Shown here one piece after another: positions 899-9,539 of a DNA stretch of 11,455 nt; positions within the stretch are counted from its first letter, which is position 1; every line of letters starts with the position of its first letter. The stretch is from a virus. Where the stretch lies: the UHGV virus genome UHGV-0118720. One strand, written 5' to 3'. The position numbers and the translations under genes are program-made. The notes under the pieces are model-generated. The model did no database searches. It was not told the DNA's origin and worked only from the letters and a program-made list of their open reading frames with translations.

Positions 899-2310
899 CC
901 TCGATTAATCCTATCTTTGAACCGTTCATTGAGGCGCATCGCTACAAAGTCGCCAAAGGCGGTCGAGGTAGCGGTAAATCATGGGCAATTGCGAGGCTGC
1001 TTGTTGAGGCGGCGCGTCGGCAGCCTGTGCGTATTCTCTGCGCTCGTGAACTGCAAAACAGTATCAGCGATTCGGTAATCCGGTTGCTTGAAGACACCAT
1101 AGAGCGGGAAGGGTATTCGGCTGAGTTTGAAATTCAGCGTTCAATGATTCGTCATCTCGGAACGAATGCTGAATTCATGTTCTACGGCATAAAAAACAAC
1201 CCGACGAAGATTAAATCGCTCGAAGGCATTGATATCTGCTGGGTGGAAGAAGCGGAAGCGGTAACAAAGGAATCGTGGGATATCCTGATCCCAACCATCC
1301 GTAAGCCGTTCTCTGAAATATGGGTGAGCTTTAACCCGAAGAACATCCTCGACGATACCTATCAGCGATTCGTAGTAAACCCTCCCGATGATATTTGTCT
1401 GCTGACGGTGAACTACACCGACAACCCGCACTTTCCTGAAGTTCTCCGGCTGGAGATGGAAGAGTGTAAACGCAGAAATCCGACACTGTATCGTCACATC
1501 TGGCTTGGTGAGCCGGTAAGCGCAAGTGATATGGCAATCATCAAACGTGAATGGCTTGAAGCCGCAACCGATGCGCACAAGAAACTCGGATGGAAAGCGA
1601 AAGGCGCTGTTGTCTCTGCGCATGACCCATCAGATACAGGGCCAGATGCTAAAGGTTATGCATCGCGTCACGGTTCGGTGGTTAAGCGCATTGCCGAAGG
1701 TCTACTGATGGACATCAACGAGGGTGCTGACTGGGCTACTTCTCTGGCGATTGAAGACGGCGCTGACCACTACCTGTGGGATGGCGATGGCGTTGGTGCC
1801 GGGCTACGCAGACAGACAACGGAAGCATTCTCCGGTAAGAAAATCACCGCCACGATGTTTAAGGGCAGCGAATCGCCGTTCGATGAAGATGCACCGTATC
1901 AGGCCGGAGCATGGGCTGATGAAGTCGTGCAGGGCGACAACGTTCGCACTATTGGCGATGTGTTCCGCAATAAGCGAGCGCAATTCTATTACGCGCTGGC
2001 TGACAGGCTGTATCTGACATATCGGGCGGTTGTCCACGGTGAGTATGCAGACCCCGACGACATGCTGAGTTTCGACAAAGAAGCAATAGGCGAGAAGATG
2101 CTGGAGAAGCTGTTTGCAGAACTTACGCAGATTCAGCGCAAATTCAATAACAACGGGAAGCTGGAGCTTATGACTAAGGTCGAAATGAAGCAGAAGCTCG
2201 GTATTCCATCTCCTAACCTGGCTGATGCGCTGATGATGTGCATGCATTGCCCGGAGTCGGCTGCGCAACCCGACTATTCCAGTTACTCAATTCCTTGTGG
2301 TGTAGGTTGA
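895..2310 (+). CDS. Terminase large subunit (ATPase/nuclease)
   Basis: 471-aa ORF with a Walker A P-loop near the N-terminus (VAKGGRGSGKSWA) and a probable Walker B/acidic segment (DICWVEEAE). Size and position, directly upstream of the portal gene, are typical. Confidence 0.93.
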   Translation: MTSINPIFEPFIEAHRYKVAKGGRGSGKSWAIARLLVEAARRQPVRILCARELQNSISDSVIRLLEDTIEREGYSAEFEIQRSMIRHLGTNAEFMFYGIKNNPTKIKSLEGIDICWVEEAEAVTKESWDILIPTIRKPFSEIWVSFNPKNILDDTYQRFVVNPPDDICLLTVNYTDNPHFPEVLRLEMEECKRRNPTLYRHIWLGEPVSASDMAIIKREWLEAATDAHKKLGWKAKGAVVSAHDPSDTGPDAKGYASRHGSVVKRIAEGLLMDINEGADWATSLAIEDGADHYLWDGDGVGAGLRRQTTEAFSGKKITATMFKGSESPFDEDAPYQAGAWADEVVQGDNVRTIGDVFRNKRAQFYYALADRLYLTYRAVVHGEYADPDDMLSFDKEAIGEKMLEKLFAELTQIQRKFNNNGKLELMTKVEMKQKLGIPSPNLADALMMCMHCPESAAQPDYSSYSIPCGVG

Positions 2311-2311
2311 T

Positions 2312-4510
2312 ATGGCAGAAAAAAAGATGACTGACTGGCATCGCAAGGTGCTGTGCAACTTTGATAATGCCTGGTCAGCAACGCAGGATATGCGTGAGCA
2401 GATTATTGAGGCTCAACGTTTCGTCAGGGTGTCCGGCGCACAGTGGGAAGGTAGCACAAACGCTGGTTACTCGTTTGATGAGGGCAGGTTTGAGCATTAC
2501 CCGCGCTTTGAACTGAATAAGATTGCCCGTGAATGTGATCGCATCATTGGCGAGTATCGACAGAATCGCATCAGCGTTAAATTCAGACCGAAGGACGATA
2601 AGGCATCGGAAGCGTTAGCCGAAAAGATGAACGGCAAATTCCGCGCTGATTATCAGGAAACATCCGGTGGCGAAGCGTGTGATAACGCATTTGATGATGC
2701 TGTAACGGGCGGATTTGGTTGTTTCCGCATGTGTGCCGATTACGAAGATGAAATGGATCCGAGTAACGAGCAGCGACGCATCAGCCTTCTTCCTGTTTAC
2801 GACCCAGCGACATGCGTCTTCTTCGATCAGGACAGCAAACAATATGACCGCTCTGATGCTATGTGGGCTATGGAAATGTTCTCCATGACGCCCAAAGCGT
2901 TCGAGGCTGAATACCCTGATTCCATCGCGGCAAGCCTTTCTCGAGATGACACTGGCACTCAATATGACTGGTCAACGCCAGATGCCATCTATGTTGGACG
3001 CTACTACGAAGTTCGCATAGAGAAGGTGAAGCTCACGGCGTGGCGCAACCCTGTTAGCGGAGAAACGGCAATCTATGATGAAGAGCAAATCAAAGATGTT
3101 GTTGACGAGCTGACCGATGGCGCATTCGAACTGATTGGTGAGCGGACAGTGAAGAAACGCCGAGTTTATTGCGGTCTTCTGTCTGGTGCTGAATGGCTGG
3201 AAGAGCCGAAGCGTATTCCGGGCGAACATATTCCTCTCATCCCGGTATATGGGCGTCGTTCATTTGTTGATAATCAGGAGCGAATCGAAGGCCACGCAGC
3301 AAAAGCGATGGATGCGCAGCGTCTTGAGAACCTGATGGTTTCCATGATTGCAGATAACGCTACTCAGGCTGGCGGTGATGGCATTCCTGTAGTTGATGTT
3401 GACATGATTCCTGGTCCTCTCGCCACTCATTGGGCAGAGCGCAACAAAAAGCGCCCGGCGTTCCTGCCGATGGTCAGTCTGAAAAACAAAAACGGAGATA
3501 TTACTGCGCAGGCTCAGGTCAGCAGTTATACGCCTCCGACACAAATGCCTCCAGCTCTTGCCGGGCTATTGCAGTACACCGGAACGGCTATTCAGCAAAT
3601 TACAGGTGCGTCGCAGCTTGAGAACATGCCGAGCAACGTCGCCACCGATACCGTTGATAGCATCTTTAACCGGATGGATACGCAGTCCTATATCTACATG
3701 GACAACATGGCTAAATCCATGCGTCGCGCTGGCGTTGTGTGGCTTTCTATGGCGCGTGAGGTCTATGGCAGTGATACGCCGATGCGTATCGTTAATGAGG
3801 ACGGCAGCGATGACGTGGCGCTGATGACTGGTGAAGTGGTTGACCGTCAGACAGGGCAGGTTATCGCGCTTAATGACCTTTCGCAGGGCAACTATGAAGT
3901 GACTGTCGATGTCGGTCAGTCGTTCGCTACTCGCCGTGATGCAACGGTTAAGTCGTTACTTTCCATGCTGGCACTTATCCCGCCAGGAACGCCGAAGCAT
4001 GACCTTGTATCGTCGATGATTCTCGACAATATGGACGGCGAAGGGATGGACGACCTGAAAGAATACAACCGCAATCAGTTGCTTCTGTCTGGAGTTATCA
4101 AGCCGAGAACACCAGAAGAACAGCAGATGGTTGAGCAGGCGAAACAACAACAGGCCAGTCAGCCAGATCCGGCTATGGTTGCAGCGCAAGGTCAGCTTCT
4201 TGCAGGTCAGGCTGAATTGCAGAAAGCGCAGAACGAACAGGCAGCCATTCAGGTTAAAGCATTCCAGGCACAGACTGATGCTCAGGTTGCAGCGGCAAAC
4301 GTTGTGAAAATCCTCGCATCTGCCGATAGCCAGCAGAAATCTGATATCCGCGAGGCTCTGAAACTGCTCGGACAGTTCCAGCAACAGCAAGGAGACAATG
4401 CCCGTGCTGATGCAGAGCTTGTCCTGAAAAGTCAGGCACAGGGCCATGCGCAGCGCATGGACATCAGCAGCATCCTGCAAAAATCAACTCAGCAACAAGC
4501 ACAGCAGTAA
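2312..4510 (+). CDS. Portal protein (P22 gp1-like, with C-terminal helical barrel extension)
   Basis: 732-aa ORF starting 1 nt after the terminase stop. Segments such as KKRRVYCGLL...GEHIPLIPVYG and the C-terminal PEEQQ...DPAMVAAQGQLLAGQAELQKAQN...RMDISSILQ match my recollection of P22 gp1 (about 725 aa). The C-terminus is Gln/Ala-rich and helical. Confidence 0.93.
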   Translation: MAEKKMTDWHRKVLCNFDNAWSATQDMREQIIEAQRFVRVSGAQWEGSTNAGYSFDEGRFEHYPRFELNKIARECDRIIGEYRQNRISVKFRPKDDKASEALAEKMNGKFRADYQETSGGEACDNAFDDAVTGGFGCFRMCADYEDEMDPSNEQRRISLLPVYDPATCVFFDQDSKQYDRSDAMWAMEMFSMTPKAFEAEYPDSIAASLSRDDTGTQYDWSTPDAIYVGRYYEVRIEKVKLTAWRNPVSGETAIYDEEQIKDVVDELTDGAFELIGERTVKKRRVYCGLLSGAEWLEEPKRIPGEHIPLIPVYGRRSFVDNQERIEGHAAKAMDAQRLENLMVSMIADNATQAGGDGIPVVDVDMIPGPLATHWAERNKKRPAFLPMVSLKNKNGDITAQAQVSSYTPPTQMPPALAGLLQYTGTAIQQITGASQLENMPSNVATDTVDSIFNRMDTQSYIYMDNMAKSMRRAGVVWLSMAREVYGSDTPMRIVNEDGSDDVALMTGEVVDRQTGQVIALNDLSQGNYEVTVDVGQSFATRRDATVKSLLSMLALIPPGTPKHDLVSSMILDNMDGEGMDDLKEYNRNQLLLSGVIKPRTPEEQQMVEQAKQQQASQPDPAMVAAQGQLLAGQAELQKAQNEQAAIQVKAFQAQTDAQVAAANVVKILASADSQQKSDIREALKLLGQFQQQQGDNARADAELVLKSQAQGHAQRMDISSILQKSTQQQAQQ

Positions 4511-6807: not shown

Positions 6808-6996
6808 ATGGCACGAACAATGCTCTATAAGCCTGGCAACATGATCACCTGTGGTCAGTTTGCTGTCGATTACATCATTGTTGATGACGAAGAAGTTAAA
6901 TCTCACCTGAAAAAAGGTTGGGTAAAAACTCCTGAAGAAACCGCAACGAAGCAAAAAGTGGCTAAGGCGGAAGAAGATGGCGAAAACGAAGGGTGA
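6808..6996 (+). CDS. Hypothetical small protein (62 aa) between the coat and gp4-like genes
   Basis: ATG at 6808 preceded by GGGAGAAGG (6797-6805). The ORF track's TTG start at 6769 lies inside the terminator hairpin and is unlikely. The 3' end overlaps the gp4-like gene start by 20 nt in another frame. C-terminus is Lys/Glu-rich. Confidence 0.45.
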   Translation: MARTMLYKPGNMITCGQFAVDYIIVDDEEVKSHLKKGWVKTPEETATKQKVAKAEEDGENEG

Positions 6997-7438
6997 TCTC
7001 GTTCTAAAGGCTTTACGAAAAGCCGGGCTGTATTCCAATGCCACGTTGACAGATGCTGACCCTCAGGCAATTGAAGATGCCATTAATGACCTCGAAGACA
7101 TGATGGCAGCATGGCAGGCGAAAGGTATCGAGCTTGGGTATCAGTTTGCTGATACAGAAAACGGCATCATGCCGTTACCTGACGATGATTCAGGTATCCC
7201 TGCATGGGCAAATGATGGCGTCGCTTTGAAACTCGCTGTGCAAGTGTGCATGGATAACGTCATTCAGCCGTCGGATGCTCTCCTTACCGCTGCTGACTGT
7301 GCATATCAGACAATCTGTATCGCTTTAACCAAAATACCACCACTTGAGCGGCGAAATGACATGCCTCGCGGTAGTGGTAACAAAAGCGCGTTTACGTGGA
7401 ATCGGTTTTACATCGAGAAAGATGATCCGAGTACGTGA
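6977..7438 (+). CDS. Head-to-tail adaptor / portal-closure protein (P22 gp4-like)
   Basis: 153-aa ORF. The N-terminus KTKGDLVLKALRKAGLYSNATLTDADPQAIEDAINDLEDMMAAW and C-terminal PRGSGN motif match my recollection of P22 gp4. It is syntenic between the coat and gp10-like genes. Confidence 0.88.
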   Translation: MAKTKGDLVLKALRKAGLYSNATLTDADPQAIEDAINDLEDMMAAWQAKGIELGYQFADTENGIMPLPDDDSGIPAWANDGVALKLAVQVCMDNVIQPSDALLTAADCAYQTICIALTKIPPLERRNDMPRGSGNKSAFTWNRFYIEKDDPST

Positions 7439-7447
7439 GGTGAATAA

Positions 7448-7552
7448 ATGCCGATTCAGCAACTTCCGCTTATGAAAGGTGTCGGCAAAGATTTCCGAAA
7501 CGCTGACTATATCGACTATCTGCCAGTGAATATGCTGGCAATTTTGATATAA
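7448..7552 (+). pseudogene. Truncated 5' remnant (34 codons) of the gp10-like tail-hub gene, displaced by the insertion
   Basis: RBS GAGG at 7437-7440, then [31 protein letters not shown] followed by ILI and a stop. The first 31 codons align codon-for-codon with the start of the full-length gene at 8121; similarity ends exactly at 7540/7541. Confidence 0.8.
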
Positions 7553-7553
7553 T
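7545..7553 (+). promoter_or_regulatory. Candidate extended -10 promoter element (TGaTATAAT) for the endonuclease gene
   Basis: TG at 7545-7546 and a perfect TATAAT at 7548-7553, about 36 nt upstream of the endonuclease ATG. No good -35 is seen, which extended -10 promoters often lack. Motif match only. Confidence 0.35.
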
Positions 7554-7588
7554 AAGTACATGAAAAATCGAAACTTTAAGGAGTAGAT

Positions 7589-8173
7589 ATGCTTTCTGAG
7601 AATGCTAAAGATATACCTGGATTTGAAGGTGTTTATGCCGTAACAGAAGATGGCAGGGTATATTCTCACTCACGTGTTGTTAAGGCTGCGCATGGCAGCA
7701 CGCAACTCAGAAAGGGGCGCTGGTTAAAGCCTAAAATCAATCAGGGAAGGGTGCTTTATAATATCGGAGCAAAATGGACTTTTGCCCATCGAATCGTTGC
7801 AATGACATTCCTGCCAAATCCTGAAAACAAGCCTCAGGTAAATCATATTGATGGCAATCCACTCAATAATAACGTCAATAATCTTGAGTGGTGCACTCAA
7901 AGCGAAAACATCAAACATGCATACGCCACCGGATTAAAGAAGCCAATCAAGTTTTTCGGAACCAAGCACCCAAAACACAAGTTGAGTGATGACGATGTTC
8001 TTGCAATCAAGTCATCAAAAGAAAGCTTGTCAGTAATTGCGGCTAAGTACGGGATATCTAAGACCTGGGCAAGTAGGCTAAAGCGTGATGCTAACTGGGT
8101 TCATATAAAGGTTGATTCCAATGGCAATACAACAACTACCACTAATGAAGGGATTGGGGAAAAGTGCGGTTAA
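7589..8173 (+). CDS. HNH homing endonuclease (NUMOD4-like N-terminal motif, HNH_3-type catalytic core, C-terminal HTH-like DNA-binding module)
   Basis: Own RBS AAGGAG at 7578-7583, 5-nt spacer. Motifs: IPGFEGVYAVTEDGRVYS (NUMOD4-like), HRIVAMTF...VNHIDGNPLNNNVNNLEWCTQSENIKH (HNH core), LSDDDVLAIKSSKESLSVIAAKYGISKTWASRLKR (HTH-like). The last 18 codons overlap the gp10-like gene start out of frame. Confidence 0.85.
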   Translation: MLSENAKDIPGFEGVYAVTEDGRVYSHSRVVKAAHGSTQLRKGRWLKPKINQGRVLYNIGAKWTFAHRIVAMTFLPNPENKPQVNHIDGNPLNNNVNNLEWCTQSENIKHAYATGLKKPIKFFGTKHPKHKLSDDDVLAIKSSKESLSVIAAKYGISKTWASRLKRDANWVHIKVDSNGNTTTTTNEGIGEKCG

Positions 8174-9539
8174 TGCTGATTATATAGACCAACTTCCAGT
8201 CAATCTTTTAGCTACGCCCAAGGAGGTGTTGAATTCATCGGGATATCTTCGCTCATTCCCGGGCATTGCAAAACGTTCTGATGTGAACGGTGTATCTCGC
8301 GGCGTCGAGTACAACATGGCGCAGAATGCTGTTTATCGTGTGTGTGGTGGCAAGCTGTACAAAGGAGAAAGTGAAGTCGGTGACGTTGCCGGAAGTGGTC
8401 GCGTATCAATGGCGCATGGTCGTATATCACAGGCGGTAGGGGTTAACGGGAAACTGGTCGAGTATCGCTATGATGGCACGATTAAAACCGTCTCAAACTG
8501 GCCTACAGACAGCGGATTCACGCAGTATGAGTTAGGATCAGTCCGCGACATTACGCGCTTACGTGGGCGTTATGCGTGGTCAAAAGACGGCACTGATTCA
8601 TGGTTTATCACTGACCTTGAAGACGAATCGCATCCTGACCGTTACAGCGCACAATATCGCGCAGAATCGCAGCCTGACGGCATCATCGGCATAGGAACAT
8701 GGCGAGACTTCATCGTCTGCTTTGGTTCATCGACGATTGAATATTTCTCCCTGACTGGCGCAACCACAGTTGGTGCTGCTTTGTATGTCGCACAGCCATC
8801 ACTGATGGTGCAGAAAGGCATTGCCGGGACTTACTGCAAAACGCCATTCGCTGATTCGTATGCGTTCATCAGCAATCCGGCAACAGGTGCGCCGTCTGTA
8901 TACATCATCGGCTCCGGTCAGGTGTCACCAATCGCCAGCGCGAGCATTGAGAAAATCCTCCGCTCCTACACTGCTGATGAACTGGCTGATGGTGTGATGG
9001 AATCGCTGCGATTTGATGCTCATGAGTTGCTGATTATCCACCTTCCGCGCCATGTTCTCGTGTACGACGCATCTTCAAGCGCCAATGGTCCGCAATGGTG
9101 TGTGCTGAAAACAGGTCTGTATGACGATGTGTACCGCGCTATCGACTTCATTTACGAAGGCAATCAGATAACGTGCGGCGATAAACTGGAGTCCGTGACC
9201 GGGAAATTGCAATTCGACATCAGCAGCCAGTACGACAAGCAACAGGAACACCTGCTGTTTACTCCACTGTTCAAAGCGGATAACGCCAGATGCTTCGATC
9301 TGGAGGTGGAATCATCCACTGGCGTAGCTCAGTACGCCGACCGCCTGTTCCTCTCTGCAACCACTGACGGCATAAATTACGGGCGTGAGCAGATGATTGA
9401 ACAGAATGAACCGTTCGTTTACGACAAGCGTGTTTTGTGGAAGCGTGTCGGGCGCATCAGGAAAAACATTGGCTTCAAATTGCGCGTTATCACGAAGTCA
9501 CCTGTCACTCTGTCTGGCTGCCAGATAAGGATTGAGTAA
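8121..9539 (+). CDS. Tail hub / needle-socket protein (P22 gp10-like), full length with a chimeric N-terminus
   Basis: 472 codons from ATG 8121; the ORF track's 8112 start is TTG and less likely. From about codon 32 ([19 protein letters not shown]...) to the end it matches my recollection of P22 gp10. The first 31 codons are a recoded variant of the upstream remnant. Confidence 0.9.

Follow-up and report, generated by a model that had tools for sequence, protein, structure and literature searches.

The 11,455-nucleotide stretch of virus genome UHGV-0118720 analyzed here, henceforth referred to as the window, covers the late operon of a P22-like (Lederbergvirus) phage or prophage. Within the 5' end of gene 10, which encodes the tail-hub protein gp10, positions 7541..8240 very probably constitute an inserted cassette with a free-standing homing endonuclease gene. 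The cassette combines a short leader, a complete HNH endonuclease gene and a replacement for the first 40 codons of gene 10, and the resident codons it displaced persist directly upstream as a stub. The status of 7541..8240 as a mobile element is well supported, and the activity of the encoded enzyme is predicted. The features of the locus are as follows.

7541..8240, plus strand: proposed mobile unit of 700 bp, made up of the leader, the endonuclease gene and replacement gene 10 codons 1-40; coincides with the diversity trough described below
7541..7588, plus strand: cassette leader of 48 nucleotides, with all three reading frames closed by stop codons
7589..8173, plus strand: HNH endonuclease gene (194 amino acids); residues 174-194 form an out-of-frame tail across the gene 10 start
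8121..8240, plus strand: cassette-borne replacement gene 10 codons 1-40; 53 nucleotides (8121..8173) are common to the endonuclease open reading frame
8121..9539, plus strand: working gene 10 (gp10 tail hub/head-completion protein, 472 amino acids), a chimera whose 5' end comes from the cassette and whose body, from 8241, is resident
7448..7552, plus strand: displaced native gene 10 5' end (stub), with codons 1-31 at 7448..7540 followed by codons for ILI and by TAA TAA; junction at 7540/7541
6977..7438, plus strand: gene 4 (gp4, head-tail adaptor; Pfam P22_Tail-4, E=8.7e-41), the upstream neighbor, outside the mobile unit

Native and foreign copies of the gene 10 start

The first 31 codons of gene 10 were found twice in the window, in frame and 673 bp apart, as an earlier note on this DNA had claimed. 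The stub copy (7448..7540) and the working copy (8121..8213) are identical at 61 of 93 nucleotides (66%) and 24 of 31 amino acids, and the longest identical run between them is 5 nucleotides. The resemblance is real and beyond chance, because no other 93-mer on the plus strand of the window matched the stub at more than 44/93 positions and because the 34-amino-acid stub alone matched positions 1-28 of Pfam Phage_stabilise (E=7e-11). The stub was also matched to PHROG 578, "head closure Hc3" (E=1.4e-8). Its open reading frame comprises 34 codons, 31 of them gene 10-like, and is closed by two stop codons. The block between stub codons 1-31 and the gene 10 ATG measures 580 bp (7541..8120), and the ATG itself, at 8121, lies inside the 3' end of the endonuclease open reading frame in a different frame. 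The description of gene 10 as interrupted had to be abandoned, because nothing breaks the working open reading frame and the stub is only what remains of the displaced native start; the working gp10 gave a full-length match to Phage_stabilise (E=7.5e-299).

Matches to insertion-free alleles identify the stub as the native start of gene 10 and the working 5' end as foreign. The gene 10 start of insertion-free phages (Kapi1, Sf6, P22-type and many others) is almost identical to the stub and unlike the working copy, which is only ~66% identical to the native alleles. In the carrier Salmonella phage UPF_BP1, the stub is identical to the P22-type allele. Against the native gene of Kapi1, the replacement block differs at 46 of the first 123 nucleotides (codons 1-41), with 23 codons carrying synonymous changes only and 8 carrying amino acid changes. 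From 8241 (codon 41) onward, gene 10 is 93-96% identical to that of insertion-free phages, and the foreign block therefore reaches codon 40, beyond the duplicated codons. The suggestion that a donor-derived 5' end had arrived together with the cassette thus holds as far as the foreign nature of the copy is concerned, but the block extends to codon 40 (8240) and not to codon 31 as first proposed. At the left junction, the window reads ...CTGGCA/A, with the stroke marking the junction, followed by TTTTGATATAA; native genes read on at this point as CACCCAAAGAA.

The C in ATGCTG and the GCA at the stub end were considered as co-converted tracts from a P22-type donor. This was rejected, because both positions vary among insertion-free alleles and T is found in some carriers.

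The endonuclease and its leader

The 580-bp block was confirmed to hold a complete HNH endonuclease gene (open reading frame 7589..8173) with its own ribosome-binding site, the Shine-Dalgarno sequence AAGGAG at 7578..7583, positioned 5 nucleotides upstream of the ATG at 7589. The gene has its own start and stop as well, and ends at 8173 in a frame other than that of gene 10. An Rfam search of 7300..8400 with cmscan at E<=1 returned no intron family and only a chance match to MicA. Since no Rfam intron family matches the region, the endonuclease gene is free-standing and not intron-borne.

Both HNH-associated profiles named for this protein in the earlier note were matched above their cut-offs: Pfam HNH_3 (PF13392) at residues 65-107 with 40.6 bits against a cut-off of 24.8 (E=1.9e-10), and Pfam NUMOD4 (PF07463) at residues 7-53 with 35.3 bits against a cut-off of 23.4 (E=1.3e-8). 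The protein was also assigned to PHROG 59, HNH endonuclease (E=3.9e-53). The only significant relative of solved structure found by sequence was I-HmuI (1U3E, E=1e-8). An AlphaFold model of the endonuclease had a pLDDT of 88, with low values confined to the C-terminal tail, and a fold search with this model returned 1U3E as the only match in the PDB at E<=0.001 (E=9.8e-7, probability 1.00, TM 0.42-0.46). The modest TM value is as expected for an extended multi-domain protein that was modeled without DNA. Residues H86 and N107 align with H75 and N96 of I-HmuI. In an alignment of 58 homologues reaching down to 37% identity, the catalytic His and Asn were found to be invariant, as were the further residues of the set N85, H86, N98, N107 and H110, which speaks against the possibility raised earlier that catalytic residues are lacking. 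The C-terminal tail, residues 174-194, is confined among these homologues to the lineage at the gene 10 5' end. Together, the profile and structure matches point to an I-HmuI-like HNH enzyme of NUMOD4 plus HNH composition, with predicted endonuclease activity.

The leader holds an extended -10-like motif, TGATATAAT, at 7545..7553 and a second motif, AATCGAAAC, at 7566..7574. TGnTATAAT, AATCGAAAC and GGAGTAGA are invariant in the window and in five loci with 69-83% identical endonucleases, while neighboring bases vary. A simple promoter scan did not call the extended -10-like motif, for lack of a -35 hexamer.

Distribution and sequence diversity among carriers

The distribution of the cassette was determined in 917 complete E. 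coli genomes holding the gene 4/gene 10 junction, in 127 matching phage records and in a set of 28 carriers from IMG/VR. As had been anticipated, an uninterrupted gene 10 normally comes directly after gene 4; this arrangement was observed in Kapi1, Sf6, HK620, CUS-3, P22-type phages and ~900 of the 917 E. coli genomes. The cassette was present in 18 of the 917 and absent from about 98%. Two of the 127 phage records carry it, both of them representing the single Salmonella phage UPF_BP1, and the rest are insertion-free. Empty sites thus dominate, contrary to what an ancestral arrangement with no insertion-free alleles would show. UPF_BP1 is represented by the complete genome record of a named phage, which suggests that the chimeric gp10 works. 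A scan of species-representative genomes yielded no carriers and only distant HNH genes, with at most 49% identity over most of the protein.

Nucleotide diversity was computed over 30 carriers and is listed below for the three parts of the locus.

Stub, 7448..7540: 4.4-5.7%
Cassette, 7541..8240: 0.4-0.8%
Rest of gene 10, 8241..9539: 5-15%

The cassette accordingly forms a trough in diversity, tenfold below either flank and with sharp edges at the cassette ends. Within it, the endonuclease gene differs between carriers at a mean of 3.8 of 585 nucleotides and the replacement block is nearly invariant. The stub, by comparison, occurs as 21 haplotypes in the 30 loci, mirroring the native alleles of insertion-free phages. 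The GC content of the cassette is 41% versus 49-51% in the flanks. All 28 IMG/VR carriers have the order gp4, stub, endonuclease, gp10, and no replacement 5' end lacking the endonuclease gene was found in IMG/VR, the two being linked in 28 of 28. The backgrounds that carry this block are diverse: gp4 belongs to at least three very different types (99% or 40-42% amino acid identity to that of the window), the coat proteins range from 26% to 100% identity to that of the window, and several needle (gp26) types are present.

The endonuclease open reading frame is intact in nearly all carriers. In E. coli ES5 (NZ_CP133871.1, locus L172, 452..1035) it is split into a NUMOD4 protein and a hypothetical protein, with the stub and gene 10 intact. 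The ES5 copy is decaying, a fate that a selfish endonuclease gene is expected to meet towards the end of its life cycle. Two shortened cluster representatives, P0005 (140 amino acids) and P0007 (108 amino acids), likewise point to decay. Many empty sites, recent horizontal transfer of a block with sharp limits to varied backgrounds, and occasional decay are together the marks that a homing endonuclease gene is expected to leave.

A long right-hand co-conversion tract was also sought in UPF_BP1 and rejected, the pattern being a complex mosaic with no clean gradient. Nucleotides ~300-600 of its gene 10 are 100% P22-type; the flanking segments are 93-98% identical to the E. coli-phage type and 75-87% identical to the P22 type.

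Distant lineages and paralogues

Endonucleases 83, 82, 72 and 69% identical to that of the window were found in more distantly related P22-like phages, each of them encoded between gp4 and gp10. In every case the endonuclease gene overlaps the gene 10 start and a gene 10 stub lies ahead of it. Most of these stubs have ...VNML(A) as their last residues and stop no more than a few bases away from the junction position of the window; the stub of locus L166 is shorter. In the 69% lineage, eight endonuclease-free close relatives match the carrier stub at 84-89 of 90 nucleotides and the working copy at 47-51 of 90. By this comparison, the pattern of a native stub and a foreign working copy is repeated independently in a second lineage, because it is the stub, rather than the working copy, that the empty relatives resemble. 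The endonuclease gene and the replacement 5' end appear to have diverged together over a long time, with the stub probably renewed from each resident gene. The phage collection contained no match to the 69% lineage and, for the 82% lineage, only UPF_BP1 (81.5%) and short matches of ~40 nucleotides.

Other P22-like phages carry two paralogous HNH genes (55% and 43% identity to that of the window) inserted cleanly between gene 10 and gene 26, with no stub. The loci concerned are L033-L044 and L052-L056 (~2950..3540 in each) and L013, L015 and L016 (4973..5509). These paralogues travel with a diverged version of the last 300-340 nucleotides of gene 10, which has 50-60% nucleotide identity to the native end, and three contigs have endonuclease genes at both gene 10 ends. 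The gene 10/26 paralogues share the leader AAATCGAAAC..GGAGTAGATATG with the window cassette, and the motifs AATCGAAAC and GGAGTAGAT are common to the 5' cassette and the 55% paralogue. When 7589..7740 of the window was aligned with 3001..3150 of L033, which holds the 55% paralogue, nucleotide identity was ~85-100% over the first ~150 nucleotides of the open reading frame and 25-60% thereafter. This drop suggests recombination between paralogous endonuclease genes. A third insertion site is occupied by a further paralogue (47% identity, 172 amino acids) between a Q-type antiterminator gene and the holin/lysozyme/Rz lysis genes in the P22-like contigs L045-L050 (e.g., L050 3001..3519).

A terminator-like hairpin was noted at the stub/cassette junction of the window, within 7521..7549, in which TGCCAGTGAATATGCTGGCA (7521..7540) is followed by ATTTTGATAT. 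The hairpin at 7521..7540 plus ATTTT was considered as a functional terminator and rejected; it is not conserved in the 69% lineage and is probably incidental.

Proposed mechanism and points against it

The arrangement can be explained by the following sequence of events. The enzyme would nick or cut an insertion-free gene 10 at a site spanning codon 31/32, and the break would be repaired from a carrier genome, with homology arms provided by the stub on the left and by the gene 10 body on the right, so that the cassette is copied in. The replacement copy, with its own start codon, would then join the resident body in frame at codon 41 to give a full-length gp10, and resident codons 1-31 would be pushed upstream and left as a dead 34-codon stub. 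Carriers would themselves lack the target, because the stub retains its left half only and the right half is present only in diverged form. Under this scheme, the target must include bases to the right of the junction, since the left side survives in the carrier stub. The intact native junction is absent from the window, and the native 27-mer of codons 32-40 was found only in loci without the 5' cassette; both junction and 27-mer are proxies for the recognition site. Because both arms consist of gene 10 sequence, entry would be independent of the hypervariable gene 4, which fits the range of gene 4 types among the carriers. The lack of any shared run longer than 5 nucleotides between the repeats means that recombination between them should not delete the cassette.

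Several points weigh against this account. Cleavage, the position of the target and the homing process are steps that we infer from sequence comparison. In I-HmuI, the catalytic His is preceded by the metal ligand Asp74; the endonuclease of the window has Asn85 at that position, invariant in the subfamily. I-HmuI nicks DNA and can act on its own allele as well, so the logic of target destruction may be too simple. Ordinary homologous recombination combined with selection could in principle move a linked block with no targeted break. Some insertion-free native alleles have replacement-like codons 34-37 (KEV, GAGGTG), namely L043 at ~1654..1680 and L208-L211 at ~1594..1620, and the divergence of the replacement block may reflect foreign ancestry rather than selection for cleavage resistance. 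A donor lineage of the cassette, with an endonuclease gene and no stub, was looked for and not found.

Recoding of codons 32-40 for cleavage resistance had been considered, nearly all changes there being synonymous, and was softened because some native alleles have KEV-type codons. Such KEV-type alleles could be naturally resistant targets, or could be a clue to the origin of the replacement block.

Alternative explanations

It is rather improbable that the cassette is passive cargo of mosaic genomes, brought in by a single illegitimate event and since spread by ordinary recombination in its flanks, with a nuclease that is inactive or has another role. P22-like genomes are strongly mosaic, as exemplified by the alternation of P22-type and E. 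coli-type segments in UPF_BP1 gene 10, and nuclease activity is a prediction for a protein in which Asn replaces the I-HmuI Asp before the catalytic His. However, a sharp-edged, tenfold trough needs recent and repeated transfer of just 7541..8240 into many backgrounds. The intact open reading frame in nearly all carriers, the invariance of the catalytic residues down to 37% identity and the retention of the layout with endonucleases diverged to 69% identity also argue against passive carriage, as do the paralogues at no fewer than two other sites in the same phage group, a pattern characteristic of homing endonuclease families that are active. If the start of gene 10 had been duplicated locally in tandem, and the copies had then diverged and received an unrelated gene between them, this would account for the same 31 codons standing twice, in frame and 673 bp apart. 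Divergence in place, however, predicts a diverged dead copy and a near-native live copy, and the reverse was observed: the dead upstream copy is near-native and the live copy is diverged (46/123 nucleotides). As the stub moreover tracks the local native allele in three backgrounds and the base composition of the block is foreign, a tandem duplication is very hard to credit.

Two further explanations give the endonuclease gene a different setting or role. The upstream ATG at 7448 could be the true gp10 start if a self-splicing intron or another form of bypass removed the block; group I introns are the classical location of genes for I-HmuI-type HNH endonucleases, and the stub has a strong native ribosome-binding site. 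This is highly improbable given that no Rfam intron family was detected in 7300..8400 at E<=1, that the stub is closed by two stops and is shorter in lineage L166, and that splicing would make the second codons 1-31 redundant, yet their ATG, frame and conservation are kept in every lineage. HNH proteins that assist the terminase in packaging are well established in cos-type phages such as HK97, but it is extremely improbable that the protein of the window is such a helper and not part of a mobile element. Its gene stands ~5 kb away from that of the large terminase, between gp4 and gp10, and is absent from about 98% of related prophages; the protein belongs to the HNH_3/NUMOD4 family with I-HmuI as its nearest structure; and P22-like phages are generally known to use headful packaging.

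Comparison with known systems

A homing endonuclease cassette of this kind has its closest described counterpart in the mobile open reading frames (mORFs) of fungal mitochondria, of which the window cassette would be the mirror image. The mORFs replace gene 3' ends with a foreign C-terminal segment and leave the native end downstream (PMC3630166, PMC6279837). Cases are atp6 of Allomyces macrogynus; atp6, atp9, cox2 and nad3 of Glomus; and atp6 and cob of Endoconidiophora. For Glomus atp6, the inserted and native ends have 63.5% nucleotide identity with a largely conserved protein, and the native end matches the sister species (PMC3630166). The likeness extends from the overall design, an endonuclease open reading frame with a foreign, diverged gene end fused in frame and the native end displaced as a stub, to the degree of divergence, since the copies in the window are 66% identical compared to 63.5% in Glomus atp6 and the native end matches relatives in both. 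The window cassette differs in replacing the 5' end and start codon, so that it has to bring translation signals of its own, a new start codon and a ribosome-binding site; in encoding an HNH enzyme, whereas those of the fungi are LAGLIDADG or GIY-YIG; and in occupying a phage structural gene, with an endonuclease open reading frame that overlaps gene 10 out of frame and is unfused.

I-HmuI and I-HmuII are intron-encoded HNH nicking endonucleases of the Bacillus phages SPO1 and SP82. The endonuclease of the window resembles I-HmuI in having an N-terminal beta-strand DNA-binding region, an HNH motif and a C-terminal helical region in the same order, and I-HmuI is also located inside an essential phage gene. 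The earlier note called such insertions into essential structural genes rare, but it is in conserved essential genes that homing endonucleases usually reside. The two differ in that identity is only ~25%, the window cassette has no intron, and Asn replaces Asp before the catalytic His.

T4-like phages have free-standing homing endonucleases, such as SegF, SegG and MobE of the Seg and Mob families, whose genes are located between or next to other genes. These enzymes target a conserved gene close by and cut it in phages that have no copy of them. They spread with co-conversion of their flanks, and the carrier allele is protected by sequence differences. Insertions inside genes of T4-like phages split the gene in two, as in nrdA of Aeh1 and gp43 of some T4-like phages, and we know of no duplicated host-gene end associated with the free-standing enzymes. 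The window cassette differs from these systems in carrying a replacement gene end and in leaving a stub as a homology arm. The T4-like free-standing enzymes are discussed more generally in PMC10448857. Within the P22-like group itself, the gene 10/26 paralogues belong to the same enzyme family, share the leader and travel with a diverged gene 10 end, but differ in being clean intergenic insertions with no stub. No published description of the cassette was found in the literature searched, which did not reach two comparative genomics reviews of P22-like phages.

Implications

The proposed design would allow a homing endonuclease gene to reside at the beginning of an essential gene with neither intron nor intein, by bringing its own replacement start and 40 codons and by keeping the old codons as a homology arm. 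This design is known from fungal mitochondria at 3' ends, and no description of it in a phage or at a 5' end was found in the literature searched. In carriers, the first 120 nucleotides of gene 10 have a history different from that of the remainder of the gene. P22, Sf6 and related phages lend themselves to genetic work, which makes cleavage, co-conversion and the function of the stub accessible to direct study, and the neighboring paralogues offer a natural system for competition between endonucleases.

An extension of the homing reading, which at present appears doubtful, is that the nuclease is self-transcribed from the extended -10 motif, possibly in the prophage, so that a carrier lysogen cuts the tail-hub gene of incoming cassette-free P22-like phages, and that the paralogous nucleases are a main driver of mosaic boundaries and interference in this group. 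If true, incoming cassette-free P22-like phages would be excluded or converted by carrier lysogens. With paralogues at the gene 10 3' end and near the late promoter, competing nucleases would then drive both the mosaic boundaries of P22-like genomes and the interference between them, and the stub would act as a portable homology arm that frees the cassette from the hypervariable gene 4.

Annotation of the locus

The genes of the late operon stand in the order small and large terminase, portal, scaffold, coat, gp4, gp10, gp26, gp14 and gp7. PGAP, the NCBI pipeline, calls the equivalent of the stub in E. coli carriers an incomplete gp10 pseudogene, and the cassette explains the presence of this flagged pseudogene in E. 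coli prophages. In the UPF_BP1 record (NC_047875.1, L001), the stub at 1502..1594 carries no annotation, and gene 10 is annotated from 2283; the start that agrees with every other gp10 gene in alignment is at 2175, 108 nucleotides further upstream. The cassette likewise explains this annotated start, which is placed too far downstream.

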